Of a stretch of DNA of 37,964 nucleotides, positions 1,539-33,832 are shown in pieces. The translations under genes and the position numbers were made by a program. Each line of letters starts with the position of its first letter. Within the stretch, counting starts at the first letter, position 1. The notes below the pieces were generated by a model. The model was not told the DNA's origin, ran no database searches, and saw only the letters and a list, made by a program, of their open reading frames with translations. The DNA is from a virus (lineage: Duplodnaviria; Caudoviricetes). Where the stretch lies: positions 1 through 37,964 of the IMG/VR virus record IMGVR_UViG_3300043747_000016; one strand, written 5' to 3'.

Positions 1539-1580
1539 GTGATTTACCTCCCTTCAAGAGGGGAAAAACCCCCTCGTTAT

Positions 1581-1604
1581 TTCGTTTTATTCTCGTAAGA
1601 CGAC
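1581..1604 (-). repeat. Dispersed 9-6-9 dyad site B
   Basis: GTCGTCTTA CGAGAA TAAAACGAA, directly after the TAG at 1605-1607. Confidence 0.7.
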
Positions 1605-1760
1605 CTAAAGTTTTACATCAAACTCTTGTTTAAACCAATCTTTTATTTCCTCATACTCTTCCTCAGAAATGCCCCAATGTTCTATAAATTCCTTAAATGA
1701 ATACCGTCTGGCCTCTTTCATAAGTGCATACATAAATGTGTCTAATTTGCTTGGCTTCAT
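1605..1760 (-). CDS. Small hypothetical protein, 51 aa (MKPSKLDTFMYALMKEARR...)
   Basis: Manual ORF with RBS AAGGAGG; below the track cutoff. Confidence 0.75.
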   Translation of the reverse strand: MKPSKLDTFMYALMKEARRYSFKEFIEHWGISEEEYEEIKDWFKQEFDVKL

Positions 1761-1928: not shown

Positions 1929-1945
1929 TCTTTTCACCTCACTAC

Positions 1946-1969
1946 GACACAATTTGGTTCAAATAATCA
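1946..1969 (-). repeat. Dispersed 9-6-9 dyad site A
   Basis: TGATTATTT GAACCA AATTGTGTC, directly after the stop of 1970..2404. Confidence 0.7.
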
Positions 1970-2404
1970 TCAGAAAGGAACCGAACTATCATCAATTACA
2001 ATTTCCATTGGTGGTTCTGCTTGTGAAGGTTTAAACCCCTTAACTTGTACATATTTTTTACCGTTATATTCACGTTCCCCAACAACCAAGCGTAAATTTT
2101 TATGAAGGAAAAACTCAGCCCATTCTTTGAAAGAATTAAATTCTTTACCGTTTGGAAATCCAGCTGCTTTCGATGCTGATTGGAATCTCCACATGGTATT
2201 CTCTGAAACAATGAAGTTATCATATAGAATTTTACGAGCTTGGAAATCTTGATCTACATCACTACGAATCTCATAATCTACAGAAACAACATTTTTATCT
2301 GTGGATGATTTTTTAAGCTCAAAATTGATAACCGTTACTTCATATTCTCCTGGTGTGATTGATGTAAATCCTTCTTTAGCTTGGCTATGATCGATTTTAA
2401 ACAT
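1970..2404 (-). CDS. DUF669-like phage ssDNA-binding protein
   Basis: PGEYEV motif, acidic C-terminal DDSSVPF tail, adjacent to ERF. Confidence 0.75.
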   Translation of the reverse strand: MFKIDHSQAKEGFTSITPGEYEVTVINFELKKSSTDKNVVSVDYEIRSDVDQDFQARKILYDNFIVSENTMWRFQSASKAAGFPNGKEFNSFKEWAEFFLHKNLRLVVGEREYNGKKYVQVKGFKPSQAEPPMEIVIDDSSVPF

Positions 2405-4554: not shown

Positions 4555-4917
4555 ATTGGTCAAAACAACCAATTTTAATCTAAAAAAATATCCTTTATAC
4601 TTACATTAAGTTTTTCAGCAATGTTTTTAGCTAATACTAAGCTTGGATTTCTTTTACCACTTTCAATGTGATTTAACCACCAATTTGTTACACCAACTGA
4701 TTTAGCTAGTTCTTTTTGCGAAATACCTTTCTTTTTGCGTATTACTGCGATGTTATTTTTCAATTATCAATTCCTCCTTTCTTTTTGTTATTGGTTCATT
4801 TAACCAATTTATATCTTGATTATAATTGGTTCTTTTAACCAAGTCAATAATAAAATTGGTTATTTAAGCAAAAAAGTTATTTTAATGAATTAATAACTTT
4901 TGGTCTTGTAAACCAAT
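4555..4917. promoter_or_regulatory. Switch operators TTGGT-N7-ACCAA (4555-4573, 4790-4808, 4825-4843, 4899-4917, degenerate copy at 4855) and sigma-A promoter for cro
   Basis: Repeated palindrome. Minus-strand TTGACT (4847-4842), 17 nt, TATAAT (4824-4819). Plus-strand TATAAT at 4921-4926. Confidence 0.8.
4575..4763 (-). CDS. Cro-like XRE HTH regulator
   Basis: SQKELAKSVGV...IESGKRNPS motif; divergent from the repressor. Confidence 0.9.
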   Translation of the reverse strand: MKNNIAVIRKKKGISQKELAKSVGVTNWWLNHIESGKRNPSLVLAKNIAEKLNVSIKDIFLD

Positions 4918-4934
4918 TAGTATAATGTTAGTAG

Positions 4935-5297
4935 GTGATTATTATGGGAATACATGTTGGTTTAAAAATAAAGGAACTTAGAAAAGAACATAAGGACACT
5001 TTGAAATCTTTAGCTGAAAAAGTTAATTATGATTGGAGTAATTTATCTAAAGTCGAAAGAGGTGTTTATGGTGCATCGGTTGACTTATTAAAAAAAATAG
5101 CGGAAGTATATAATGTTAGTCCAAACTATTTTTTCGATGGTTTTACTAAATCGGAAGGCAACCTTCTTGTGGAAGAAAGTATCGTACCTTCCGATCTAAA
5201 GAAAAAATATAATTTTGTTGTAGATGGGGTTGAAGCTACTGAGGAAGAGCTTCTTGAGGCAATAAAGCTTATTCGTTTGCTTCGCCCATCTGATTAA
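4935..5297 (+). CDS. CI-like XRE HTH repressor (no peptidase domain)
   Basis: N-terminal HTH (TLKSLAEKV...LSKVERG); divergent from cro. Confidence 0.85.
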   Translation: MIIMGIHVGLKIKELRKEHKDTLKSLAEKVNYDWSNLSKVERGVYGASVDLLKKIAEVYNVSPNYFFDGFTKSEGNLLVEESIVPSDLKKKYNFVVDGVEATEEELLEAIKLIRLLRPSD

Positions 5298-5451
5298 GTA
5301 TTTTATCCCTGTGAGCACATGCGGTAAGGATCATCGGACAACTAATGCATCTCACTTCATTTTTGAATTTGATGGAGGACAGTGTTTTTTTTGCCAATTC
5401 CGCAAAATGTTTTAAATCAATTATTTCTCTTTCGCTTTCGCTATCGTGCAT
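5269..5451 (-). CDS. Hypothetical protein convergent with the repressor
   Basis: Track ORF; RBS AGGAG before ATG 5451. Confidence 0.45.
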   Translation of the reverse strand: MHDSESEREIIDLKHFAELAKKTLSSIKFKNEVRCISCPMILTACAHRDKILNQMGEANE

Positions 5452-5487
5452 TGTAAACATCTCCTATTAACAAAGGTGGTAAGTTAT

Positions 5488-5718
5488 TTGTATGATGTCG
5501 GCAGATGTCTTTTGTCCGACAAACTTTTACAGGCACGAATGTCACAACAAGAACTAGCTGAAAGAATCGGTGTAACCAGACAACAAATCAATCATTATTC
5601 AAACAATCGAAGAATTATGACGCTGCATGTTGCTAAAAATATTGCTTTCATTCTTCAATGCGATATTGATGATTTGTACGAATGGATTCCTGTAAAATCT
5701 CGGAGTAAAAGACGATAA
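5488..5718 (+). CDS. XRE HTH protein
   Basis: MSQQELAERIGVTRQQI motif; TTG start after AAAGGTGG. Confidence 0.8.
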   Translation: MYDVGRCLLSDKLLQARMSQQELAERIGVTRQQINHYSNNRRIMTLHVAKNIAFILQCDIDDLYEWIPVKSRSKRR

Positions 5719-5872: not shown

Positions 5873-5921
5873 TATTATTTTATTAAGAATAGGTTGAAAT
5901 TTAGTGAAGAGGAGTAACAAT

Positions 5922-7373
5922 ATGAAAGTCGCGGCATACATCCGTGTTAGTACACACGAACAAGTTGAGGAAGGATATTCAATACCTGCGCAACGGAATA
6001 AGTTGGAAGCTTATGCACTTTCTCAAGAATGGGAAATTGTCCAATTTTATGTAGATGAAGGGATCAGCGCCAAAGATATGGATAGGCCAGAGCTACAACG
6101 TATGTTGAAAGGAGTTAGAGAAGGATTATTTGACTGTGTGTTGGTTTATAAATTAGACCGTCTTACAAGGTCCGTAATGGACCTTTATACTCTTCTGGAT
6201 ACATTTGAAAAACATAACATCAAATTTAAAAGCGCAACCGAAATTTACGATACAACAACAGCAATCGGCCGCCTTTTTATAACCCTTGTTTCGGCACTTG
6301 CACAATGGGAAAGAGAACAGCTTGGAGAGCGTGTCAGTTTCGGGATGCAGCAAAAAGCAAAAGAAGGAAAATGGACAGTAAGCACTCCACCATTTGGTTA
6401 TATTTCAAATGATTCTCAATTAACAATAAATGCCTCAGATGCTGCTATTGTAAAAGAAATATATACTCTTTATCTCTCTGGTATGGGCATGTGGAAAATT
6501 GCTAAAAATCTTAACGATAGAGGTCTTAAAACAAAAAGGAATAAACCTTGGGGCCAAACTTCGGTTCACTATATCTTAACTAATCCAATTTATAAAGGAA
6601 CAACAAGATATAATTTTCGAGTTAACAATGAACAGTATTTTGAAATGGATGACGTTGCGCCAGCTATCATATCAGAAGAAGAATTTAATTTAACGCAGCA
6701 AATGATGGAAAATAGAAAAAGTGTTCATCCTCGTCAGGCTACATCTCGGTTTATGTTTAGCAAGGTTTTAAAATGTTCCCGATGTGGATCCACACTAATC
6801 GGTAAATCCTCCACAACGAAGAGAGGAGATAAAAAGTATTACTCTTATAATTATATTTGCCAAAATAAACTTCGCGGCACCTGTGACCTGCCAACCATCA
6901 ATGAAAATTTTTTCGAACAAAAATTTCTTGAGTTAATGGATAATTGGAATTTTAATGAATATGCCAATGAGATGGTTAATGAAGAGGTTGCTGTTTCGGT
7001 TGAAGATATAGAAAGTAGAATCAAGCAGCTGCAGGATGAATTAAAAAATATTGAAAGCCGCCGATCAAAATGGCAGTATGCCTGGGTGCAAGAAATGATT
7101 ACGGATTTGGATTTTAAAAAACGCATGGATGAAGAAAACGAAAAAGAAAAGATGATCCTCAAGGAATTAAATGAATTAACTCCAAAAGAATCATCCCCCG
7201 CAGATTCAAGTATAATCGATTTATGGACAGATTTAAAGTTGAATTGGTCATATATGGACCATCAGGCAAAGAAACAGTTTATTTTGATTGCTGTTAATTA
7301 TATCATTGTGGACAAAGTAAATATGAATCGTAATCCTGATTCAATTGAAATTAAAGAGGTTAAATTTAATTAG
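5922..7373 (+). CDS. Large serine recombinase (integrase)
   Basis: Catalytic YIRVST, DRLTRS, recombinase domain, Zn ribbon CSRC...C...C, coiled coil; RBS GAGGAG before ATG 5922. Confidence 0.95.
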   Translation: MKVAAYIRVSTHEQVEEGYSIPAQRNKLEAYALSQEWEIVQFYVDEGISAKDMDRPELQRMLKGVREGLFDCVLVYKLDRLTRSVMDLYTLLDTFEKHNIKFKSATEIYDTTTAIGRLFITLVSALAQWEREQLGERVSFGMQQKAKEGKWTVSTPPFGYISNDSQLTINASDAAIVKEIYTLYLSGMGMWKIAKNLNDRGLKTKRNKPWGQTSVHYILTNPIYKGTTRYNFRVNNEQYFEMDDVAPAIISEEEFNLTQQMMENRKSVHPRQATSRFMFSKVLKCSRCGSTLIGKSSTTKRGDKKYYSYNYICQNKLRGTCDLPTINENFFEQKFLELMDNWNFNEYANEMVNEEVAVSVEDIESRIKQLQDELKNIESRRSKWQYAWVQEMITDLDFKKRMDEENEKEKMILKELNELTPKESSPADSSIIDLWTDLKLNWSYMDHQAKKQFILIAVNYIIVDKVNMNRNPDSIEIKEVKFN

Positions 7374-7999: not shown

Positions 8000-8267
8000 G
8001 GGGATGAATAAAATTTTCGGTGTAGAATGCGATGAATGTAGTGTGCCATTTCCTAAGTCGATGCTTGTTTCATTCGAATGTGTTGGTTTTTCTAAGTATA
8101 ACGGCCGCTATTGTGCGCATTGTTATCAAAAGATAGCCAAAAGTTTTGGATTTTGTGATGATTGCGGCGATGAATACCCAAAAGAACATTTGTATAAATC
8201 AGTGATGGGACATAAAACGATACTATGTTTACGTTGCTTAAACAAGGAGGATGACGATGCGATTTAA
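7986..8267 (+). CDS. Zinc-finger protein (four CxxC)
   Basis: CDEC, CAHC, CDDC, CLRC; ATG 7986 after GGGGGTG. Confidence 0.7.
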   Translation: MGLVEGMNKIFGVECDECSVPFPKSMLVSFECVGFSKYNGRYCAHCYQKIAKSFGFCDDCGDEYPKEHLYKSVMGHKTILCLRCLNKEDDDAI

Positions 8268-9480
8268 AAATGAAATCACTAAAAAAGTTTATGAGGTTTT
8301 GCTGCAAACAGGATTCGAACATAGCGTGATTTTAGACATCGTTCAAAATGAAAATGTCCTATCCACAAAGATAATTTTGCCCCCTAGTATCGATTTAGAC
8401 GACCTTGAAACGATCCTCCCTAATCTCAAACAGGAATTAAACGCAATGGATGTGAAGTTTGGAAAAATCAAAGGTAAAAAGGTTGAAATTTTGTTTGGTA
8501 TGCGGGATTTATCTAACGTTTCTTTTAACATCAGAAAAGACACTTTACAAATTGAATTGCCGTCATCTTATGGCGTTTCTATTTTGGATTTTGCCGATGG
8601 TGCTAGTTGTCACCTACTTGATGGCGGCACAACCAGGATGGGAAAAACAAATTTGATGCTATATATTTTAACTGTTTTATATGTACAGCTTAACGGCGAT
8701 GTCGATTATTTTATAACCTCAACCAAATTAAAAGATTATTACCCGTTGTTTGGGCTGCCTAATGTAAGAACGGCTAAAGGAGTGGAAGAATTTGAGGATA
8801 TGCTTGATGACCTTATTACTCTTTATAAGTCTAGGGATAGCCTTTTATATTCGGAGGAATTTATAAAGGCAACCGATGCTAAGGATGTTAAAAAGTTTTA
8901 TCCTGATAAATACTATTTATTTCGTCCTGTTTTTGTGGTCATCGATGAATATGCCAGGTATGCGGATAATCGGGAAGTTCAATTAAAAGTTATGGAGTTA
9001 GTCGAATCGGCGGGTTATGTGAATGTCCATGTATTAATCTCAACTCAAAGACCCGATGCAAGGACCGTTTTACCGCCAAGGATCAAGGGTAATTTATTGG
9101 CCCGAATCTGTTTTACCACAACCGACAAAAACAACTCAATCGTTGTTTTGGACCAGGAAGGGGCGGAAAAGTTAGGGGAGATTCCAGGGCGGGCCATCTT
9201 CTTAAATAGCAATGTTAATATTGTCCAGGTTCCACGAATGACAGCCGCCAACAGTTCCAGGCTATTAAAACCATTCAGGAGGAATAAACAACATGTTAAC
9301 CAAGGTGAAACGGGATCAAATGATACTGCATTACCTAAATCATTTCAAAGTCTTGACGAGAAATCAGTTGGCATTATTGATATTCCAGAGCAACAGCAAC
9401 CCCGTAAATGTGACAAATCGGGTAATGAAAAGGCTAATAACGGGTGGTTCCTGCTTGCAGATCCCCCGGACAAAAGATAA
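8257..9480 (+). CDS. FtsK/SpoIIIE-family ATPase
   Basis: Walker A GGTTRMGKT, Walker B VVIDE, STQRP, GRA motifs. Confidence 0.9.
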   Translation: MRFKNEITKKVYEVLLQTGFEHSVILDIVQNENVLSTKIILPPSIDLDDLETILPNLKQELNAMDVKFGKIKGKKVEILFGMRDLSNVSFNIRKDTLQIELPSSYGVSILDFADGASCHLLDGGTTRMGKTNLMLYILTVLYVQLNGDVDYFITSTKLKDYYPLFGLPNVRTAKGVEEFEDMLDDLITLYKSRDSLLYSEEFIKATDAKDVKKFYPDKYYLFRPVFVVIDEYARYADNREVQLKVMELVESAGYVNVHVLISTQRPDARTVLPPRIKGNLLARICFTTTDKNNSIVVLDQEGAEKLGEIPGRAIFLNSNVNIVQVPRMTAANSSRLLKPFRRNKQHVNQGETGSNDTALPKSFQSLDEKSVGIIDIPEQQQPRKCDKSGNEKANNGWFLLADPPDKR

Positions 9481-9847
9481 ATGTTATTTATATGGACATA
9501 TCGGTATCAATCCAAATAGTAATAAGATAAATCATTATTTAAAAATTGTGGACTTTTATCTGCAAGCCGGGAAACCTAATGTTTTTGTGGTTGAACCTGA
9601 ACTGGGGTGCTATGAGCCAGATGTTTATTTTAAAAATAACAAAGGGGAGCCGATCTGTGTGGAAATACAATTAACCGTGATAAGCCATAAAAAAATGCAA
9701 AGAAAAATAGATGATTTTGTTAAAGAATCAGGAAAAACACATGATTCCAAAAAACTAATGATTTGTAGTGATTATCATTATAAAGTTAAAATGCCCAGTG
9801 GTTTTCATCTGATTCGACAAGGATTGCCAAAAGAAATTATTTTTTAA
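9293..9847 (+). CDS. Replication-relaxation (Replic_Relax) family protein
   Basis: N-terminal wHTH (RD..IL..L..F..LT..QL) and PD-(D/E)xK-like EPD...VEIQ; own RBS AGGAGG; 188-nt overlap with the FtsK gene. Confidence 0.8.
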   Translation: MLTKVKRDQMILHYLNHFKVLTRNQLALLIFQSNSNPVNVTNRVMKRLITGGSCLQIPRTKDKCYLYGHIGINPNSNKINHYLKIVDFYLQAGKPNVFVVEPELGCYEPDVYFKNNKGEPICVEIQLTVISHKKMQRKIDDFVKESGKTHDSKKLMICSDYHYKVKMPSGFHLIRQGLPKEIIF

Positions 9848-10293: not shown

Positions 10294-11310
10294 TTATTTT
10301 ACGCGGATTTTTTGACCTGCAAATATTTTATTAGGGTCACTAATGCTATTCCATGCTTGAAGTTGACTTACGGTCGTTCCATTTGCTGATGCAATCTTTG
10401 AAAGTGTATCTCCTGACTTGATTACATAATAAACAGGTTGAGCTTTTAATGCTGGATTATCTAACCAGTAGAATACCCCACTTGCTTCATCAACCCAATT
10501 AGCCCCGCCTAGGTTATCCCAACAATGGCCATTTGAATCTATTACCTTATCAAACACATGAAAAGTTTCGTCTTTTTGTGTATCTCTCACATATTCGGCG
10601 CGATGATCTGGCGCTTTTCTAATGTCTGTCGTTCCATCACATCTCAATGTTTGTAGGATGGTTTGTTTTGTGCAAAAAACAGGATCGATTGTTGGTTGTG
10701 GCTGAGGTGCTTGTTGAACCTGACCCCATGCTCCAATGTCATCTCTTTCCAGGTTGTCCAAATCAACATTTGCCCCGGTGTTATTCCAATTGGTTTTATC
10801 GATTTGATATTGATAAATATTTAAAAAGCTACAATGCTGGCCAGAGCTCCATGCGGTTGTCTGAAACCAATAATCCGCCGCGTTATTTTGATGCAAATAA
10901 TTAAGAACGGTAAATGATCCATATGCACCTAATTTGTAGTTTCCTAGATTAGCGCGGATCGCATTGAAGTAGGATAAAATATTGGCCAAATCTCCCGCCT
11001 GGGCATCATAATCCACAGTAAAATAAATTGCGGTTCCTTCTGGCTGACCCACCGAATGTGCAAGATTAATAGCATCCACCGCATCGGATTTCCCTTTGGC
11101 TGCCGAAAAATAACCTGCTGATGTTGGATTCGTTTCATAAATGCTAAATATCTGCATTCCTGCCGCCTTTATGTTAGCAGTTTCTCCAAGTGTTAAACCT
11201 TTCCATGTCGAACGGCTGAGATAACGCCCAACATATTTAATTCCGTTTTTAGCTAAATTAGAAATCTGTGTTGGGTTTAATCCTGTACAGTCCACAGAAT
11301 TTATAGTCAT
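10294..11310 (-). CDS. Endolysin: DUF1906/GH25-like muramidase, SH3-like region, LysM
   Basis: YVGRYL, AIYFTVDYD, QTTAWS motifs; C-terminal YVIKSGDTLSKIA...GQKIRV LysM. Confidence 0.9.
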   Translation of the reverse strand: MTINSVDCTGLNPTQISNLAKNGIKYVGRYLSRSTWKGLTLGETANIKAAGMQIFSIYETNPTSAGYFSAAKGKSDAVDAINLAHSVGQPEGTAIYFTVDYDAQAGDLANILSYFNAIRANLGNYKLGAYGSFTVLNYLHQNNAADYWFQTTAWSSGQHCSFLNIYQYQIDKTNWNNTGANVDLDNLERDDIGAWGQVQQAPQPQPTIDPVFCTKQTILQTLRCDGTTDIRKAPDHRAEYVRDTQKDETFHVFDKVIDSNGHCWDNLGGANWVDEASGVFYWLDNPALKAQPVYYVIKSGDTLSKIASANGTTVSQLQAWNSISDPNKIFAGQKIRVK

Positions 11311-11654
11311 TATTTAACCTCCTTCGCCTTGGATACTGCTTGTTCAATCAATGTGGATAACAATGGTTCAATTTGTGTTTTTACTGAAGCAATCGCATCG
11401 TTCTTTATGGTTTGTGCTAATTGTGGATTCCATGCTTGTCTCGCCTTTGCATCATTGACAATACGATTATTGAAATCATTTACCACTGATTCAGCGATTG
11501 TTGAAAATTCATCTGTGACAGTCGAGGCCGTTTTAGCATTCGTGTGGACCTCTAAAAACTGTTTAATCTTAGGAGTCACATAAGTGATCCCCGCAATAGC
11601 TACGATATAGACAAGAGCCGATAATGCTTGGATAAATTGAGCTTCTAAAGTCAT
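11310..11654 (-). CDS. Holin (LL-H-like)
   Basis: N-terminal TM segment, LIEQAV motif, directly upstream of the endolysin. Confidence 0.7.
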   Translation of the reverse strand: MTLEAQFIQALSALVYIVAIAGITYVTPKIKQFLEVHTNAKTASTVTDEFSTIAESVVNDFNNRIVNDAKARQAWNPQLAQTIKNDAIASVKTQIEPLLSTLIEQAVSKAKEVK

Positions 11655-11657
11655 GAA

Positions 11658-11945
11658 TTATTCCCCCTTATTTTCGAGTGAATCTAATCTTTTATGTGCC
11701 TGCTTAGAGCTTTCTTCCACACGAATAACACGCTCTGATAGTTCATTTGTACGTCTCTCGTTGGCTTTAATATCGACTTGGATGTTTGATACTCCCGTGC
11801 TTATATTCGTTAAGGTGGTACGAATAACCGCCAATTCTGAAGCATCATTTTTCACCTCTTTATCTCTTGAACGAGTAAATGTAAATAAAGCGATTAAAAA
11901 GCCTCCAATGGCACATACAATCCCGATTTGAATATCGATTGACAC
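11658..11945 (-). CDS. Holin/hemolysin-like lysis protein (one TM plus coiled coil)
   Basis: GTG start after GGGGGCGG; C-terminal ERVIRVEESSKQAHKRLD. Confidence 0.7.
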   Translation of the reverse strand: MSIDIQIGIVCAIGGFLIALFTFTRSRDKEVKNDASELAVIRTTLTNISTGVSNIQVDIKANERRTNELSERVIRVEESSKQAHKRLDSLENKGE

Positions 11946-12033
11946 TTGACCGCCCCCTAAAAATAAATCCATCTATATAAAAAAAGAGCCCATAAAATGA
12001 GCTCTTCAACTTAAAATATTTAATTCCATTTAC

Positions 12034-12057
12034 GACACATTTTCATCCAAAGACGAA
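12034..12057 (-). repeat. Dispersed 9-6-9 dyad site C
   Basis: TTCGTCTTT GGATGA AAATGTGTC, 5 nt after the acetyltransferase stop. Confidence 0.75.
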
Positions 12058-12062
12058 CTAAG

Positions 12063-12581
12063 TTAAATAGCACAGATATTTTCTTTTGTTTTTAATATCT
12101 GTGCTGGGATTCCAACTGCAACTGAATTTTCTGGTATATTCTTTGTAACAACAGAATTGGCTCCAATTTTAGAATTTTTTCCGATAACAATTTTACCTAA
12201 AATTTTAGCTCCTGCACCCACTAGAACATTTTCTTCAAGAGTAGGAAAACCGTCGTTTTTTCCATGTGATAATCCTAATGTGACAGAATGGTATAGCTTA
12301 CAGCCTTTTTTTATTACAGCGTTTTTACCTATCACCAATCCAACTCCATGAACAATCACTACTCCACCTTCAATTTTCGCTCTCCAATCGATATCAATAC
12401 TATATAATATCTGGATCAATCGAGTTAAAATCATAGGAATTAAAGGTATTTTATGCAACCATAACCAGTGTGAAATACGATAAGATATTAATGCATGGAC
12501 TCCTCTATTGGTCAGTAAAGAAAGAATAAACTTTCCTTCGACTTTTTTTATGTCCATGATAATCTCCTTTGAAATATTCAT
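12063..12581 (-). CDS. CysE/EpsC-like hexapeptide-repeat O-acetyltransferase
   Basis: HGVGLVIG, VTLG, GAGAKILG, IGANSVV, VGIPA left-handed beta-helix motifs. Confidence 0.9.
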   Translation of the reverse strand: MNISKEIIMDIKKVEGKFILSLLTNRGVHALISYRISHWLWLHKIPLIPMILTRLIQILYSIDIDWRAKIEGGVVIVHGVGLVIGKNAVIKKGCKLYHSVTLGLSHGKNDGFPTLEENVLVGAGAKILGKIVIGKNSKIGANSVVTKNIPENSVAVGIPAQILKTKENICAI

Positions 12582-12669
12582 GAATTATTCCCCCCAAAAA
12601 ATATTACTTTTTCCTACAAATTATTATACTTATAAATTGTAATAAAAGTAATATTTTTGGAATAAAAAG

Positions 12670-14175
12670 TTAAATTATAGGACTTACTCTTGTTGTACTT
12701 AATGTTGTCCCGTTTACAGCCATTGAGTAATACCATCCTGCTGGCACATATAATTCAATTAATTCTGTATTACTGCTAGATGTTGAACCGTCAACATATT
12801 TTGATAATGCTTGAGGGTTTGAACTTGAAGACGTTCCTAAATAAGCAACTGCATACCCTGCTGTTCCACTGACATTAGCGTATATTTGTTGTCTAACAAT
12901 AATAGGAAACGGATTTGTATTTTGATAAATGGTTCCACTCACTAAAGGATTAGCAGGAGGTGAAACACTTGGCGAACCTGTTATATACGGTGCGCCTGTA
13001 CCCGACAAAGCTGCAAAATTATTAATTCCAATTCTATAACCAGTAGCTAGACTAATAATAGGAACTACGCAGTCCTCAAATGTACAACCTGTAACTAGTA
13101 TTTGTCCTTGCAAACCATTCGCTCCTAAACCTTCAAAAGAACAACCTGTTATAGCTATACCATCCGCTGTTGCTATTGCATTAATAAATTGAAGTGTGTG
13201 AACCGCTGGAACTTTGGCAGAACAACCTGAAAAAACAGTACCGCGATTATCACCACTAGAAGGATTAACTGTTATTAATGGATAATTTGTATCATTAGGA
13301 ACAAATACACATCCTACAAACAATGTGGAATCGGCATTACCCAAAAACATTTTAGAAACTGATGGTGTAGCAGGATTTTGTCCAGCTTCAAATTTACAAT
13401 TCGTAAAGCTGTTTAAAAATACTTGTGAATTTGTTCCACCATCTACATTCAATAATTTTGTACAGGATTCAATTCGTACACCATGAAAATGGTTAGCGTT
13501 GCATCCATTATCAGTGTTAGAACCTAAATTCAAGCCTAATCCACAATACATCAATTGAACATTTTCAAAATAACCATCTTGAGCAAAGATAAGGTCTAAT
13601 CCTGTTCCACCAATTTGAGCTATCATAATATCTTTAATAAAAAATCGACCATCAGCATTATTTAAATGAATTCCTCCGACAGAAGGTGAACTTGCGTTAT
13701 ATGAAGTAGTCCCGTCACTTGAACTTATACTTAAACCCTCAATACCAAAATCAGTAATAGCTGGCGCTCCACCTACACCATTAACTGAAAATACATATCC
13801 TGATGTTCCTGTCGGGTTAATTCTTGTTGCCATTGCTCCCGCACCTTGAATGTACACATGTGAACGCAAATATATAGTGCCTGATACCTGATAAACACCT
13901 TGAGGTATATATACAATTCCTCCGTATTTTCCGTTTGATGGCGCACCATAGGCAGAATTTGAACTATTTGGTGCAATGCTATTTATAGCGTTTTGGATTG
14001 CTGTTGTAGAGTCATTTACTCCCGTTGGGTCTGCTCCAAAATCTTGTACAACATCAACCCATGCATTTTTCCAGTGTGTCGCATTTTGGGCCAAAGACGT
14101 CTCAGCAGCCGTCAGTCTCGGCTCTAAATAAGTGGGATCATTTTTAAGGTCTGGAAACTTATTTCCCCATCCCAT
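12670..14175 (-). CDS. Tail spike / receptor-binding protein with pectate-lyase-3-like beta-helix (depolymerase)
   Basis: DFGADPTGVNDSTTAIQNAI and GIVYIPQGVY motifs; last gene of the tail module. Confidence 0.85.
   Translation of the reverse strand: MGWGNKFPDLKNDPTYLEPRLTAAETSLAQNATHWKNAWVDVVQDFGADPTGVNDSTTAIQNAINSIAPNSSNSAYGAPSNGKYGGIVYIPQGVYQVSGTIYLRSHVYIQGAGAMATRINPTGTSGYVFSVNGVGGAPAITDFGIEGLSISSSDGTTSYNASSPSVGGIHLNNADGRFFIKDIMIAQIGGTGLDLIFAQDGYFENVQLMYCGLGLNLGSNTDNGCNANHFHGVRIESCTKLLNVDGGTNSQVFLNSFTNCKFEAGQNPATPSVSKMFLGNADSTLFVGCVFVPNDTNYPLITVNPSSGDNRGTVFSGCSAKVPAVHTLQFINAIATADGIAITGCSFEGLGANGLQGQILVTGCTFEDCVVPIISLATGYRIGINNFAALSGTGAPYITGSPSVSPPANPLVSGTIYQNTNPFPIIVRQQIYANVSGTAGYAVAYLGTSSSSNPQALSKYVDGSTSSSNTELIELYVPAGWYYSMAVNGTTLSTTRVSPII
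14078..14101 (-). repeat. Dispersed 9-6-9 dyad site H (in frame within the tail-spike gene)
   Basis: GACGTCTTT GGCCCA AAATGCGAC, codons 25-33 (ETSLAQNAT). Confidence 0.7.
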
Positions 14176-14528
14176 TATCGAAGCACCTCCGCACGATAGG
14201 CACCTGTTGCAGTAATTGTTAAGCTTGTAAACGGATCAAATAAAGCCGAGTAAGCTTCTCCTACTTTTACTGTTCGAGTAAATGTATTAATGGTAAAAGT
14301 TAAGTCAGCCGTACCATCATTGACGATTGAAAAACCATACCGATTATCAGGAAAGGTTGTAATTGGTGATACATTGGTCCATGCTTCCATAGCCACAGTT
14401 CCGCGAGCCCTATAAAAAGGTGTTCCATTATCCCCTTGAGCAATTACATAGGCATCTAGAGAAGCATCATAAAATTGTGGAGCTATTTTTCCGTTAGCTG
14501 TTTGTAGGTCTTTATTGTTCGCTGCCAT
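14175..14528 (-). CDS. Minor tail/baseplate protein
   Basis: Position in the tail module; beta-rich composition. Confidence 0.6.
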   Translation of the reverse strand: MAANNKDLQTANGKIAPQFYDASLDAYVIAQGDNGTPFYRARGTVAMEAWTNVSPITTFPDNRYGFSIVNDGTADLTFTINTFTRTVKVGEAYSALFDPFTSLTITATGAYRAEVLR

Positions 14529-14532
14529 TTAA

Positions 14533-14850
14533 TCACCCCAAATCATTAATTATATTGATTAAAATAAAACTATCATTAGGAAAAGTTTCAATCCTGGCAT
14601 CTGAAAAAGTTACCTCAAATTCGGCTTGAAATGATCCAGTTTCATTTGTATCCCCTTGTTCAAATACCATCCACACAATGCCATTCACAGCATCTTGGAT
14701 TTGTGCTTGCCGATCTACTTTCACGGTTCCGCTTTTTGACATTAAAAAACGAACCGTTGCACCAGTTAAATCCACTGGGCCCGATTCATTCGAAAGGGTA
14801 GCTTTAATATTGTCTTTTGTATCATTTTGTTTTATTTTTACAGTTGCCAA
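14533..14850 (-). CDS. BppU-like baseplate upper protein domain
   Basis: IKQNDT...VDLTGATVRF...AEFEVTF...ETFP motif. Confidence 0.7.
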   Translation of the reverse strand: MATVKIKQNDTKDNIKATLSNESGPVDLTGATVRFLMSKSGTVKVDRQAQIQDAVNGIVWMVFEQGDTNETGSFQAEFEVTFSDARIETFPNDSFILINIINDLG

Positions 14851-16565: not shown

Positions 16566-17213
16566 TTAGGATGGTTGTTTGTTCCAATATTTTAGTTCGG
16601 CTTGTTTTCTTGCTTTTATTGCATCTTCTTTATTTTCAAATGATCCTAATTGGATAGATTCTCTATCCACTCTAATTCTAGCAATCCACTTTTTACTTCT
16701 CTTTACCCAACTAACACCAGCAAATCCACTACTATTGTTTTTATTGACCCTTCTGTTTAAAGTTTGTTCCAATGGTGTAGACCATTTGCAATTAGAAGGT
16801 TCATAATTACCATTAACATCTATTCGGTCTAAACTGAGTTTTGGGGAAGGTTTGTCGCCCATATCAGCATAGAAGTTTTTAAAATTATGCCAACGTTCAC
16901 AAACTGAAATCCCACGTTGTCCATAATCTTTATAATGTTTATTTTTCGGATTTTCACATCGTTGAATCATTTGACTCCAAATATAATATTCTAAAGTATC
17001 ACTTTTGCTGTGGCGAGTTCTAATTTCAATTTGCAAACAACCGCAGGAACGAACCCCTCCACTTTTAAGGTTGCCGGTTGTTACCCTTTTTTCGTTGCCA
17101 CAATCACATTTGCAAAACCAAATGGCTTTCTTATGTTTATTAGAACCATCTCGCCTAACAACAGTTAATCTTCCAAATTTTTGTCCAGTTAAATCGATTA
17201 TTTTTCTTGGCAT
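16566..17213 (-). CDS. Free-standing HNH endonuclease with AP2 domain
   Basis: DLTGQKFGRLTV, CKCDCG/SCGC, SLDRIDVNGNYEPSNCKW, AP2-like GVSW...W.A.I...LG.F. Confidence 0.9.
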   Translation of the reverse strand: MPRKIIDLTGQKFGRLTVVRRDGSNKHKKAIWFCKCDCGNEKRVTTGNLKSGGVRSCGCLQIEIRTRHSKSDTLEYYIWSQMIQRCENPKNKHYKDYGQRGISVCERWHNFKNFYADMGDKPSPKLSLDRIDVNGNYEPSNCKWSTPLEQTLNRRVNKNNSSGFAGVSWVKRSKKWIARIRVDRESIQLGSFENKEDAIKARKQAELKYWNKQPS

Positions 17214-31550: not shown

Positions 31551-31591
31551 TTAGCCACCTGGTTTAATGCCCATACGATCACCTCCTTTAC

Positions 31592-31615
31592 GACACATTT
31601 TGGTCGTAAGACGTC
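31592..31615 (-). repeat. Dispersed 9-6-9 dyad site D
   Basis: GACGTCTTA CGACCA AAATGTGTC, abutting the stop at 31616. Confidence 0.75.
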
Positions 31616-31915
31616 TTAAATAAGTTCCTCTTTCATATGCATTTTTAAGAACTCTGCCATACCTAAACCGATAATCCCATCCAAACAAGTCCAACCGCTT
31701 GCAACAGTTCCATTTTTATATTTCCTTACTACTACCAATTCTTCGATTTCATTACCGTAAAGCTCATTTAACAAAATTCTAATTAGTTCTTTAACAGTTA
31801 TTTCACCGTTCTTTTTTGCTTTAATGTCCTTTAATTCCTCAACATTTCCAACTAATTCAGAAACAGATACCTTAACTTTTATTTCACTTGGTAATTTAGA
31901 CAAATTACAATTCAC
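31616..31915 (-). CDS. Hypothetical protein (cassette cargo)
   Basis: Track ORF; start may be TTG 31903. Confidence 0.7.
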   Translation of the reverse strand: MNCNLSKLPSEIKVKVSVSELVGNVEELKDIKAKKNGEITVKELIRILLNELYGNEIEELVVVRKYKNGTVASGWTCLDGIIGLGMAEFLKMHMKEELI

Positions 31916-31922
31916 CTCTTGT

Positions 31923-31946
31923 TATGTCTTTTCTTTCAAATATTCA
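31923..31946 (-). repeat. Dispersed 9-6-9 dyad site G
   Basis: TGAATATTT GAAAGA AAAGACATA; the first 3 nt are the ArpU-like stop. Confidence 0.65.
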
Positions 31947-32369
31947 TTCAGCCACAATTCCAAATGCTTCAGCAACAACCGCAATCATTTCTCTTTTCAA
32001 ACGATAATAAGTACGATCAGGAATTTTTAAATCTTTATAAACATCCACATCGAAGCGATCTAACAGATAACGATGTTCCCAAATTTGCTGTTGAATCGGT
32101 CTTAACGATTCATACACTAAATCTAATTTTCTTACCGTCCGTGTATATTCATCTAATTCGATTTCAGTTAAGGCAATCTTTTCGGGTTCGCTATAAAATT
32201 GATTACCTCTTTGGCTTTCGGACCCAGAATAACCTGGCGTTAATTTCGGTTCTAAGTCCATCTTTTTACTTTCGATGATAGCCTCATACATTTTATAACG
32301 GCTCATAAGCTTTTCTGCCTGCCGTTTAACTTCTTTGGTTAATTTTATGTCCAACAGAGTTAATTGCAT
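31944..32369 (-). CDS. ArpU/RinA-family late transcriptional activator
   Basis: RYL...D..VY..L.I..RTYYRLK motif; end of the early region. Confidence 0.85.
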   Translation of the reverse strand: MQLTLLDIKLTKEVKRQAEKLMSRYKMYEAIIESKKMDLEPKLTPGYSGSESQRGNQFYSEPEKIALTEIELDEYTRTVRKLDLVYESLRPIQQQIWEHRYLLDRFDVDVYKDLKIPDRTYYRLKREMIAVVAEAFGIVAE

Positions 32370-32377
32370 TCAATCAC

Positions 32378-32800
32378 CTACTCAACACGATTAATACTAG
32401 CTTGTTGGTCAAATCCATTCGGGTAACGTTTCATCAATTTCACAATGTTCATCGTTGCGATTTCCTCTAATGAAAATCCAGCCGAATTCGATAAATTTGT
32501 TAGGTACCAAAGGCAATCGCCTAACTCTTTTGCCAATTCAAGAGGTTCCATTTCATGACCGTGGAAAACAACTTTCTTTAATAAATCCACAACTTCTCCA
32601 GCTTCGCCATTTAATCCCATGGAATAATTACAATAGGCTTCATTTTTCGTTAAATCTTTGTTGCGTGTGCGTAATGCTAATTCTTGATATTCTGCAAACT
32701 TCACGATGTTACTGCCTCCAAAATCTGTTTCGTTAATCGAATTATTCTTATTCTCATATATTAGTTTCGAGACTTCATATACTTTATTATCAACGTTCAT
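32378..32800 (-). CDS. MazG-like NTP pyrophosphohydrolase
   Basis: GLNGEAGEV...KELGDCLWY...NIVKL..RYP. Confidence 0.9.
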   Translation of the reverse strand: MNVDNKVYEVSKLIYENKNNSINETDFGGSNIVKFAEYQELALRTRNKDLTKNEAYCNYSMGLNGEAGEVVDLLKKVVFHGHEMEPLELAKELGDCLWYLTNLSNSAGFSLEEIATMNIVKLMKRYPNGFDQQASINRVE

Positions 32801-33072
32801 TATTTTTTACTTCCTTTCACTCTGGATCCGTATAATTTATATTTTTGTAATTGATTTTTGACTTCCCACAATTCAACGCCAAACAAATCAGCAATTTGCA
32901 TATCACTAAATCCCATGCCCCAATATTTCACTAATTTTTGAATAAAATGATCTCCCCATCTTTTTAGCTGAAGTTCCCGTGCTGCAGGATATTTATATTC
33001 AATAGGGCATTCTTCAAAAAGACAGATTGTTAACAATTGTTTTTTTGTTGCTTCTTCCCATCTTAAAACCAT
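32800..33072 (-). CDS. Hypothetical protein with C-terminal HTH-like segment
   Basis: GFSDMQIADLFGV. Confidence 0.65.
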   Translation of the reverse strand: MVLRWEEATKKQLLTICLFEECPIEYKYPAARELQLKRWGDHFIQKLVKYWGMGFSDMQIADLFGVELWEVKNQLQKYKLYGSRVKGSKK

Positions 33073-33248
33073 TTATTTTCACCGATCTCTATATCGATTT
33101 CTTTAAAACTTGATAAAACCAATTCATATTTCAATTCATCATAAGTAAGTTCATCGATGCTTGTACCTGTTTGAGAATGAGTAATGCCTTTTTCTTTTAA
33201 TTGCTCCAAAACAAAATTACGTTTCATATTTTGTTGCAAATTAAACAT
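33063..33248 (-). CDS. FbpA-like small protein
   Basis: L..KGI...G.SIDELTYDELK pattern. Confidence 0.55.
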   Translation of the reverse strand: MFNLQQNMKRNFVLEQLKEKGITHSQTGTSIDELTYDELKYELVLSSFKEIDIEIGENKWF

Positions 33249-33272
33249 CGAACATCACACCTTTTGAGAGAA

Positions 33273-33425
33273 TTAGTACGGTAGGTCTCGCATATTTAAC
33301 CGATCTTTCTTTAACTTCTCAATTAATTCTTTCGCTTGCTTTGGATTGATCTGCTGCATTAATTCAGCTAATTGTTTTTTATATTGAATCCGTTCTTTGT
33401 CTTCGATAAATTTTGATTTAGCCAT
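33273..33425 (-). CDS. Small hypothetical protein, 50 aa
   Basis: Manual ORF with RBS GGAGG. Confidence 0.65.
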   Translation of the reverse strand: MAKSKFIEDKERIQYKKQLAELMQQINPKQAKELIEKLKKDRLNMRDLPY

Positions 33426-33487
33426 GTTGTTCCTCCAAGTCAATTAATTTATTAAGATAAAAACTAACTTTCTTTGAATCTTCCATG

Positions 33488-33625
33488 TCACTCCGCCAGC
33501 TCCTTTTGTTTATTAGCCTCTTCCCAGAATAGTGAATCCACTTTCGAAAGAAGATCATGAAGCTCCGGCAATGACAACCCACATTCTTTTATGACTTTTT
33601 CTAATATTTCAACTTTTACGGACAT
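33488..33625 (-). CDS. Small hypothetical protein, 45 aa
   Basis: Manual ORF with RBS AAGGAGG. Confidence 0.65.
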   Translation of the reverse strand: MSVKVEILEKVIKECGLSLPELHDLLSKVDSLFWEEANKQKELAE

Positions 33626-33637
33626 GAATTTTCCTCC

Positions 33638-33661
33638 TTCATAATTTGGTCGAAAGACGTA
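33638..33661 (-). repeat. Dispersed 9-6-9 dyad site E
   Basis: TACGTCTTT CGACCA AATTATGAA, abutting the stop at 33662. Confidence 0.7.
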
Positions 33662-33832
33662 TTAGTCTTCTAGTTCTCTCATACGATTTCTGACCCAATC
33701 TAATTGACCTCCGACAACCATTCCCTTTAATTGCATTCTGTAGGCTTCGAATAGTTCATCTTTCAATTCTTCAATTTCCTTTTCTAATTGATTAATCCTA
33801 TCTTCGTTTGTTTCTTCTGGCATATAAATCAT
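33662..33832 (-). CDS. Small acidic coiled-coil protein, 56 aa (cassette cargo)
   Basis: Manual ORF MIYMPEETNEDRINQLEKEIEELK...; RBS AGGAG. Confidence 0.7.
   Translation of the reverse strand: MIYMPEETNEDRINQLEKEIEELKDELFEAYRMQLKGMVVGGQLDWVRNRMRELED

Follow-up and report, generated by a model that had tools for sequence, protein, structure and literature searches.

Palindromic partner sites bound an exchangeable predicted-tailspike cassette in a temperate soil siphophage, with a phage-borne Xer-like enzyme as the likely recombinase

The putative receptor-binding gene of a temperate siphophage from soil carries, in frame, one of two palindromic partner sites (H within the gene, C beyond it) that bound a cassette encoding a predicted tailspike depolymerase and an O-acetyltransferase. 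On the alignments described below, H and C are real sites and the points at which crossovers occur, and comparisons of soil assemblies and related phages indicate that the cassette between them is swapped as a unit. The likely route is a double crossover, one at each site, and the likely enzyme is an Xer-like tyrosine recombinase that is phage-borne and supplied from another prophage; taken as a whole, this account appears quite probable. We give somewhat better than even credence to a broader proposition, namely that temperate phages of Bacillota share a natural form of cassette exchange, in which a mobile Xer-like recombinase acts on spacer-coded sites and co-resident phages trade tailspike domains and surface-modifying genes by paired crossovers.

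The cassette and its bounding sites

The window (the whole stretch of 37,964 nucleotides that was analysed) is the complete circular genome of the phage, with a 127-nt terminal repeat; its genes comprise an HK97-like head module, genes for tail and lysis, and one for a large serine integrase. This integrase (5904-7373) is the sole recombinase among the window ORFs: the ORF scan found no tyrosine recombinase, and the 48 ORFs scanned contained neither a reverse transcriptase nor an invertase, with no RVT match. The genome also encodes an ERF protein (2417-2836) and several HTH regulators, and has an immunity region at 4575-5718. Since the named relatives of the phage are Neobacillus and Halobacillus prophages, its host is probably a member of the Bacillaceae. 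The region was present in five soil metagenome runs, two of which may be where it came from. Other genes observed in the window include an HNH endonuclease among the tail genes (16566-17213) and an FtsK-like and replication-initiator-like pair adjoining the integrase (8251-9847).

Table 1. Cassette genes, flanking backbone and site copies in the window
Feature	Position	Strand	Evidence or remark
Downstream backbone lysis genes: two small ORFs, taken as holins from their position, and a GH25-like/LysM endolysin	10294..11972	-	
Terminator-like hairpin on the backbone side of C	11983..12007	-	conserved in L001
Site C, non-coding 13-6-13 partner, starting just past the acetyltransferase stop	12030..12061	-	spacer GGATGA (12043-12048); 20.5 bits
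Cargo 2: hexapeptide O-acetyltransferase, EpsC type	12063..12581	-	NF041874, 165.4 bits (cut-off 150)
AT-rich intergenic stretch with imperfect inverted repeat	12582..12669	.	self-match 12597-12658, 79%
Cargo 1: pectate-lyase-like beta-helix, predicted tailspike/depolymerase	12670..14086	-	PF12708, E 1e-14
Site H, imperfect 13-6-13 palindrome read in frame within the tail gene	14074..14105	-	spacer GGCCCA (14087-14092); 16.7 bits
Constant N-terminal peptide, about 24 codons, likely virion anchor (judged from position only)	14104..14175	-	
Upstream backbone: 117-aa conserved protein and BppU_N protein	14175..14850	-	
Early-region site	1577..1608	-	spacer CGAGAA; 14.0 bits
Weak early-region site	1942..1973	-	spacer GAACCA; 6.0 bits, within the chance range
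Early-region site	31588..31619	-	spacer CGACCA; 13.9 bits; also a crossover point
Early-region site	33634..33665	-	spacer CGACCA; 14.2 bits

The beta-helix ORF matched PHROG tail spike/fibre proteins and the putative pectin lyase of PDB entry 7chu (E 6.5e-9), and its Atlas neighbours agree; it thus has the parallel beta-helix, pectate-lyase-like fold of tailspike depolymerases. A single-sequence AlphaFold model of the tail protein (pLDDT 34) was set aside. The terms 'depolymerase', 'virion-anchoring' and 'host range' are used here as predictions from fold and from the position of the gene, between tail and lysis genes. The acetyltransferase gene has a GC content of 32%, against 37-39% in its flanks. 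The AT-rich stretch preceding it is possibly its own promoter; a promoter scan of the region gave no excess over chance. On the backbone side, the gene for the 117-aa protein stands immediately before the anchor-peptide gene in L008-L011 and L040, and a search of genome contigs with this protein alone found none. When the region was compared with cultured phages by blastn, only a fragment of the acetyltransferase was matched.

In other phages, most cassettes have no second gene of at least 100 codons. Where co-cargo is present, it is often surface-related: among the 18 proteins scanned, L008, L020, and L228 have acyltransferases, L056 an O-antigen ligase-like protein, and L089 a GDSL esterase. 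One H-C cassette (L058) holds a reverse transcriptase ORF (PF00078), and L240:4401-6073 has a 355-aa ORF resembling it, preceded by a small gene; DGR-like units may travel as cassette cargo in these two cases.

The minus-strand ORF 12670-14175 (501 aa) encodes ETSLAQNAT at codons 25-33, directly before WVDVVQDFGADPTG, as a sequence-only reading of this DNA had noted. That reading had also translated site C, in the equivalent frame, as SSLDENVS followed by a stop and placed the sites about 2.04 kb apart; the same translation was recovered in register, and the spacer centres lie 2044 bp apart. The sites are slightly wider than the coordinates it gave: with 13-bp arms and a 6-bp spacer, each covers 32 bp. 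The in-frame stop of C is merely the TAA that ends the palindromic arm.

H and C have 15 exact bases in common around three free ones, a pattern that is circular as evidence because it was derived from the H-C pair itself. As an independent test, we built a model of the arms only from other phages, never showing it the window; its training set was 35 distinct loci out of 67 test loci, after removal of those that were high-GC, out of frame, short, or duplicate and of three excluded by hand, and it was later refined with the partner sites found. Applied to the window, the refined model ranked C, H, and the early-region sites at 33634, 1577, and 31588 as the top five, all above the maximum of 13.2 bits reached in ten shuffles of the window. 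An iterative scan listed six co-oriented copies in the genome, namely H, C, and four in the early region. By location, H sits in frame within the tail gene, C follows the cassette, and the remaining copies surround early genes.

Both arms fit one consensus, roughly TTAnT(T/G)CGCAATT on the left and its mirror image on the right. The spacer length is strict, with 38 matches at 6 bp versus 2-5 at other lengths. Of the 30 loci whose downstream DNA was long enough, 16 had a partner site scoring above the 95th percentile of shuffles (a 5% null); 14 of these sites lie at or past the stop codon, and ten have a GGA spacer, a part of the site that the model ignored. The sites show two features of Xer/lox-type tyrosine-recombinase core sites, inverted arms around a spacer of fixed length (6-8 bp in that type) and crossovers at the spacer edges. 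No site exceeding its own shuffle maximum was found in L019, L022, L024, the G001/G121 prophages, G004, or G002, despite the same upstream gene. The exact motif derived from the window gave four, chance-like matches in IMG/VR. In whole genomes, strict patterns gave no excess over control in G001 and yielded 1/269 genomes, which suggests that they are too strict for chromosomes.

Crossovers at the sites and conservation of the motif

We compared the contigs of four soil runs with the window; the positions reported here come from the 20 loose ends listed out of 26. In all four runs, the window cargo passes at 14094, at the edge of the H spacer, into another anchor, whose letters read here as a consensus left arm, with T-Q-L encoded in frame; one run also has an end at 14084. 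In run X1, a different cargo follows the H spacer on a related anchor. In run X4, the holin side of the window (382 nt with no differences) is joined to another left arm at 12050, and in run X3 the window cassette is joined to another backbone at 12041. The partners have the spacer in common in all of these joints. The ends listed around C fall at 12028, 12029, 12041, 12050, and 12062. Altogether, seven of the 15 distinct loose-end positions among those listed lie on H or C, which make up about 1.3% of the stretch. Homology between the window and a Neobacillus prophage stops at 14091, inside H, and homology between L001 and the window begins at 12048, in the C spacer. The claim of the sequence-only reading that the H-C module is swappable at boundaries set by DNA-level sites is thus borne out by relatives and soil contigs joined at spacer edges. 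Breakpoints also occur away from the sites (14425, 14466, 32586, 33436, and more), showing that ordinary mosaicism is also at work; mosaic boundaries near the cassette include 14425 in L001 and 14466 in three runs.

Contig ends were also seen in the early region, at 31604, 31609 (two runs), and 31612 on the site at 31588; none was among those listed for the site at 33634. These two sites bracket genes for an ArpU-like activator and MazG (31588-33665), and because their spacers are equal, deletion between them would be allowed; no such joint was among those listed for the soil contigs. In run X2, an otherwise near-identical 1.9-kb contig has adjacent substitutions at 33648 and 33649, inside the spacer of the second site (33647-33652), possibly the footprint of a spacer exchange.

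Related phages show the same boundaries. The backbones of L020 and L021 are 94-97% identical, and the two differ in the stretch from an in-frame site to a downstream one; their identity returns at the C spacer. L252 and L257 have a common backbone and different cassettes, and diverge from the first base past the H spacer. Conversely, the proviruses L055 and L064, whose record names carry one common IMG number, share 1,872 bp at 99.95% identity between unrelated flanks, in a block that starts five bases ahead of H and extends into the right arm of C. Among 42 distinct internal ends of high-identity blocks, 11 lie within 45 bp of a site versus 1.2 expected; the other 31 lie away from sites.

At the protein level, searches with the N-terminus gave three matches in one case and 15 in another, from which P0029 was dropped as an unrelated repeat match. 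The anchor peptide is common to 16 proteins with unrelated C-termini, including GH113, SGNH/GDSL, and beta-helix domains. The identity profile was computed over 15 rows, the window included (P0023, P0026, P0034, and P0035 were omitted, being short or redundant). Identity per column reaches 1.0 at L28 and A29 and is 0.22-0.46 at residues 30-32, and 0.04-0.15 from residue 33 onwards. In the opposite arrangement, P0003 and P0034 have 328 identical residues past the site and unrelated N-termini. The predictions that identity among N-terminal homologues would fall at the site and resume at a C equivalent both agree with the data, the latter from L001, L020/L021, and the soil contigs. We also observed that P0030 equals P0035 minus 146 residues directly after SLAEN; the gap is due either to an assembly error or to recombination involving an internal pseudo-site.

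The third prediction was that synonymous positions of the motif would be kept at the DNA level, and this too agrees with codon usage and with a control comparison. In loci selected by their similarity at the protein level, the codon for Leu28 is TTG in five of five (background 17%) and that for Thr26 is ACG in three of four (background 13%); the motif is absent from two more distant homologues (L012 and L014). A rare-codon pattern retrieved 66 IMG/VR loci and a synonymous common-codon control 85. For assignment to protein families, we kept loci with less than 50% GC and at least 60 codons downstream and removed duplicates; one test ORF came from the whole-genome scan. Among the ORFs listed, tail spike, fibre, or neck families were matched by 23 of 39 with rare codons versus one of 36 control ORFs, plus three tape-measure matches, the control being drawn from viruses of every kind, Bacillota phages and others. 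If the wobble positions were free, codon use would lead one to expect roughly 20-fold more tail junctions in the control. In-frame placement was discarded as uninformative (41 of 43 AT-rich test loci versus 74 of 83 control matches), and the two sets are separated by family assignment only. A back-translated anchor pattern gave no match in two collections. In one Halobacillus prophage (L014:10001-15911), three tandem paralogous tail-like genes each start with a variant of the anchor peptide and lack the site.

Proposed exchange route, candidate enzyme and rival explanations

The H and C spacers differ at two to four of six bases in all 36 pairs and are never identical. They form two classes, GGC.. 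at H and mostly GGA.. at C, with the uniformity at H being partly forced by coding and by the search pattern; L011, whose spacer at H is GGA, departs from this pattern. Among unrelated phages, C spacers are highly variable (mean 2.67 mismatches), which limits exchange between matched spacers to local pools. Recombinant partners match in their spacers with one exception, L243/L301, which recombined despite one mismatch; differing flanking spacers and matching partners, both seen here, are what natural cassette exchange with heterospecific spacers entails. Tyrosine recombinases usually need spacer homology between partner sites. Under this rule, the differing spacers disfavour deletion by H x C recombination and favour paired H x H' and C x C' events, a model that fits the shared spacers of the recombinants.

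In the mechanism that we propose, the Xer-like recombinase would act on sites of the H/C type, working in trans, from another prophage, for phages without their own copy. Two phages would trade cassettes by one crossover between H and H' and one between C and C', with the matched spacers permitting both events and the spacer mismatch blocking H x C deletion, so that the outcome would be a natural recombinase-mediated cassette exchange. The N-terminal peptide presumably holds the protein on the virion, and the swap would then alter the surface polysaccharide that is recognised. The acetyltransferase may modify this polysaccharide in the lysogen, masking the receptor and blocking superinfection.

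The candidate enzyme comes from a conserved family of Xer-like tyrosine recombinases of about 333 aa (330-346), found beside the cassette in six of 34 site-bearing phages; a tyrosine recombinase of some kind was present in 15 of the 34 records. Five of the six members have 52-74% identity and one about 32%, and the gene lies downstream of the tail gene in five and upstream in one. Two close members tested scored above the NF040815 cut-off and below the XerC, XerD, and IntI cut-offs, with 104.6 against a cut-off of 265 for the integron-integrase model. All five aligned members have the R-K-H-R-H-Y set, which we take to be the tyrosine recombinase catalytic residues.

The association also appeared in a reverse test on 62 distinct viral loci selected by the recombinase out of 78 fetched, after removal of five training loci, duplicates, and one distant match. 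A site of at least 13 bits was found within 6 kb in 26 of the 62, compared to 3.5% of shuffles, and sites are about 12-fold enriched near the accessory recombinase; at this strict threshold, 36 of the 62 loci had no site. The in-frame sites near the recombinase have a GGC spacer in 12 of 13 cases. Within 1 kb upstream, sites of at least 8 bits occurred at 17 of 62 viral versus three of 20 chromosomal recombinase loci (null about 3%). The gene was found in 21 of 269 genomes of one Bacillaceae family. Two cultured phages have the order tail-recombinase-holin, each with a site just upstream of the recombinase; in L244, the recombinase adjoins early-region sites instead. About 180 bp upstream of the recombinase, an imperfect palindrome is conserved in L306, L311, L312, L313, and L319; its left arm is good, its right arm is shifted, and it is possibly an autoregulatory site.

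The main rival explanation is the route proposed in the sequence-only reading, in which the same recombinase and sites would excise the cassette as a circle by H x C recombination, leaving a stub, and insert it into an empty site with mismatch tolerated; Tn916-like coupling provides an analogue. The co-orientation of H and C and the in-frame stop supplied by the right arm of C would suit this route, as would the C-class spacer at the H position of L011, the mismatched L243/L301 pair, and the existence of a 36-aa stub (P0026). We nevertheless consider it unlikely, given matching spacers in 0 of 36 H-C pairs and classes that stay separate. There was no credible empty site in 129 loci: three formal candidates proved spurious (L271 and L272 oppose the tail-gene direction, and the L289 ORF is itself spurious), the 65-aa stub of L019 was rejected with a score of -21.6, below that of a site, and the stop of P0026 is out of register with the TAA of the arm. 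The four soil assemblies contained no joint skipping from H to C, bearing in mind that contigs drop rare variants.

Alternatively, the sites could be short homology patches for the Erf-like annealing protein of the phage, with the palindrome binding something else. An ERF protein is encoded in the window and a tyrosine recombinase is not, many breakpoints lie elsewhere, and hotspots of this kind are described for coliphage receptor-binding domains in the main text of PMC10408124. However, several junction partners share only the 6-bp spacer and two to three bases, too little for annealing, while their cassette-side arms differ, and annealing predicts neither the strict spacer, nor the dyad symmetry, nor the link to a recombinase gene; we judge it improbable. 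It is also highly improbable that a host XerC/XerD homologue, another Xer protein, or the phage serine integrase acts on the sites and that the neighbouring recombinase is incidental. That gene is absent from most site-bearing phages and the inner arm matches the pdif XerC arm at about six of 11 positions, as a host enzyme would lead one to expect, yet the arms are alike with no XerD-type arm, and the 12-fold enrichment concerns an accessory gene itself confined to 21 of the 269 genomes. The serine integrase in particular is disfavoured because recombinants share all six spacer bases rather than a 2-bp centre. Scarcely credible, finally, is the notion of regulatory operators whose match to mosaic boundaries is incidental: six co-oriented copies in a genome with several HTH regulators would accord with it, but the immunity region has none, crossovers map to the spacer edges, and many phages retain one copy within a coding sequence, where two domains meet.

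Comparison with known systems and unusual site placements

The H/C system works like an Xer-type module system and is not a member of the pdif, shufflon, integron, or DGR classes. The pdif (XerC/D) modules of Acinetobacter plasmids, as outlined in PMC7315799, have 11-bp arms around a variable 6-bp linker and bracket mobile gene modules, with pairs inversely oriented according to a title cited there. The likeness to that outline lies in arms and a 6-bp spacer that bracket genes, and in an inner arm partly resembling the XerC arm. By eye, in comparison with the pdif sequences given there, the arms here are symmetric, without an XerD arm and hence without the combination of XerC and XerD arms. 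In addition, the candidate here is a single phage-borne Xer-like protein, and what is exchanged includes a protein domain, since one site lies in a reading frame.

In the description of PMC6109161, the Rin shufflon, which occurs in Bifidobacterium prophages, has an armless phage tyrosine recombinase beside the receptor-binding gene; its repeat is asymmetric and 11 bp long, and the alternative tips that it inverts are stored in the same genome. Such an enzyme next to the tail gene is a feature in common with the present candidate, and as in that description, one site lies inside the gene and one just past its 3' end, in direct orientation; in contrast to it, no stored or inverted alternatives are seen here, the spacers differ, and the cargo moves between genomes. 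The sequence-only reading was correct that neither an invertase shufflon nor a DGR is involved. The window has one cargo, six co-oriented sites, and no adjacent invertase, unlike shufflons of the Rin, Min, Gin, and Cin types; no long internal repeat accompanies the lack of an RVT match in its 48 ORFs; and it contains no integron-like cassette array, the candidate enzyme scoring far below the integron-integrase cut-off.

In engineered recombinase-mediated cassette exchange (RMCE) with heterospecific lox or FRT sites, two non-matching spacers cause a cassette to be exchanged instead of deleted. By analogy, the H/C system would be a natural counterpart of this laboratory design.

Two other reports are pertinent. 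Conserved motifs flank the receptor-binding domains of coliphage and Klebsiella phage tailspikes (PMC10408124; bioRxiv 10.64898/2026.05.12.724579). In these two main texts they are patches of 20-95 nt read as homologous-recombination hotspots, the word 'recombinase' is absent, and neither a dyad nor a fixed spacer is mentioned. Tyrovirus gp50, in the account of PMC9703825, is an Xer-like recombinase of unknown function in the structural module of Bacillus phages, with an 11-6-11 palindrome adjoining. That account presents a single site by the tape-measure gene, read as attP, and describes no cassette; the Tyrovirus site, which may bear on novelty, is set apart from H and C by this description rather than by sequence. 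The literature searched, with most subscription journals outside its scope, contained no description of the H/C system.

The usual explanation for phage mosaicism and for swapped receptor-binding domains is illegitimate recombination or a relaxed form of homologous recombination. A defined site and a candidate enzyme can now be assigned to one common class of boundary, and the long-open question of module exchange becomes directly testable. The system would account for the 'second integrase' that annotations of Bacillota phages place between tail and holin genes, as well as the recurring xQLAE peptide in their tail proteins. If true, it would constitute a third dedicated mechanism of host switching, beside inversion shufflons and DGRs, and a ready source of RMCE tools, with natural spacer classes useful for engineering genomes and phages in laboratory strains.

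Sites were also seen in other settings. An unrelated large phage has a near-perfect copy of the window site (L005:3997-4024; 26.8 bits) between small ORFs. In L114 (4187-4326), the H site is present in three tandem copies, 60 bp apart, within one tail ORF. In L082, L110, L075, and L107, H-C cassettes are found away from the tail-holin junction, close to head or connector genes; in L107, four sites are placed around small genes.
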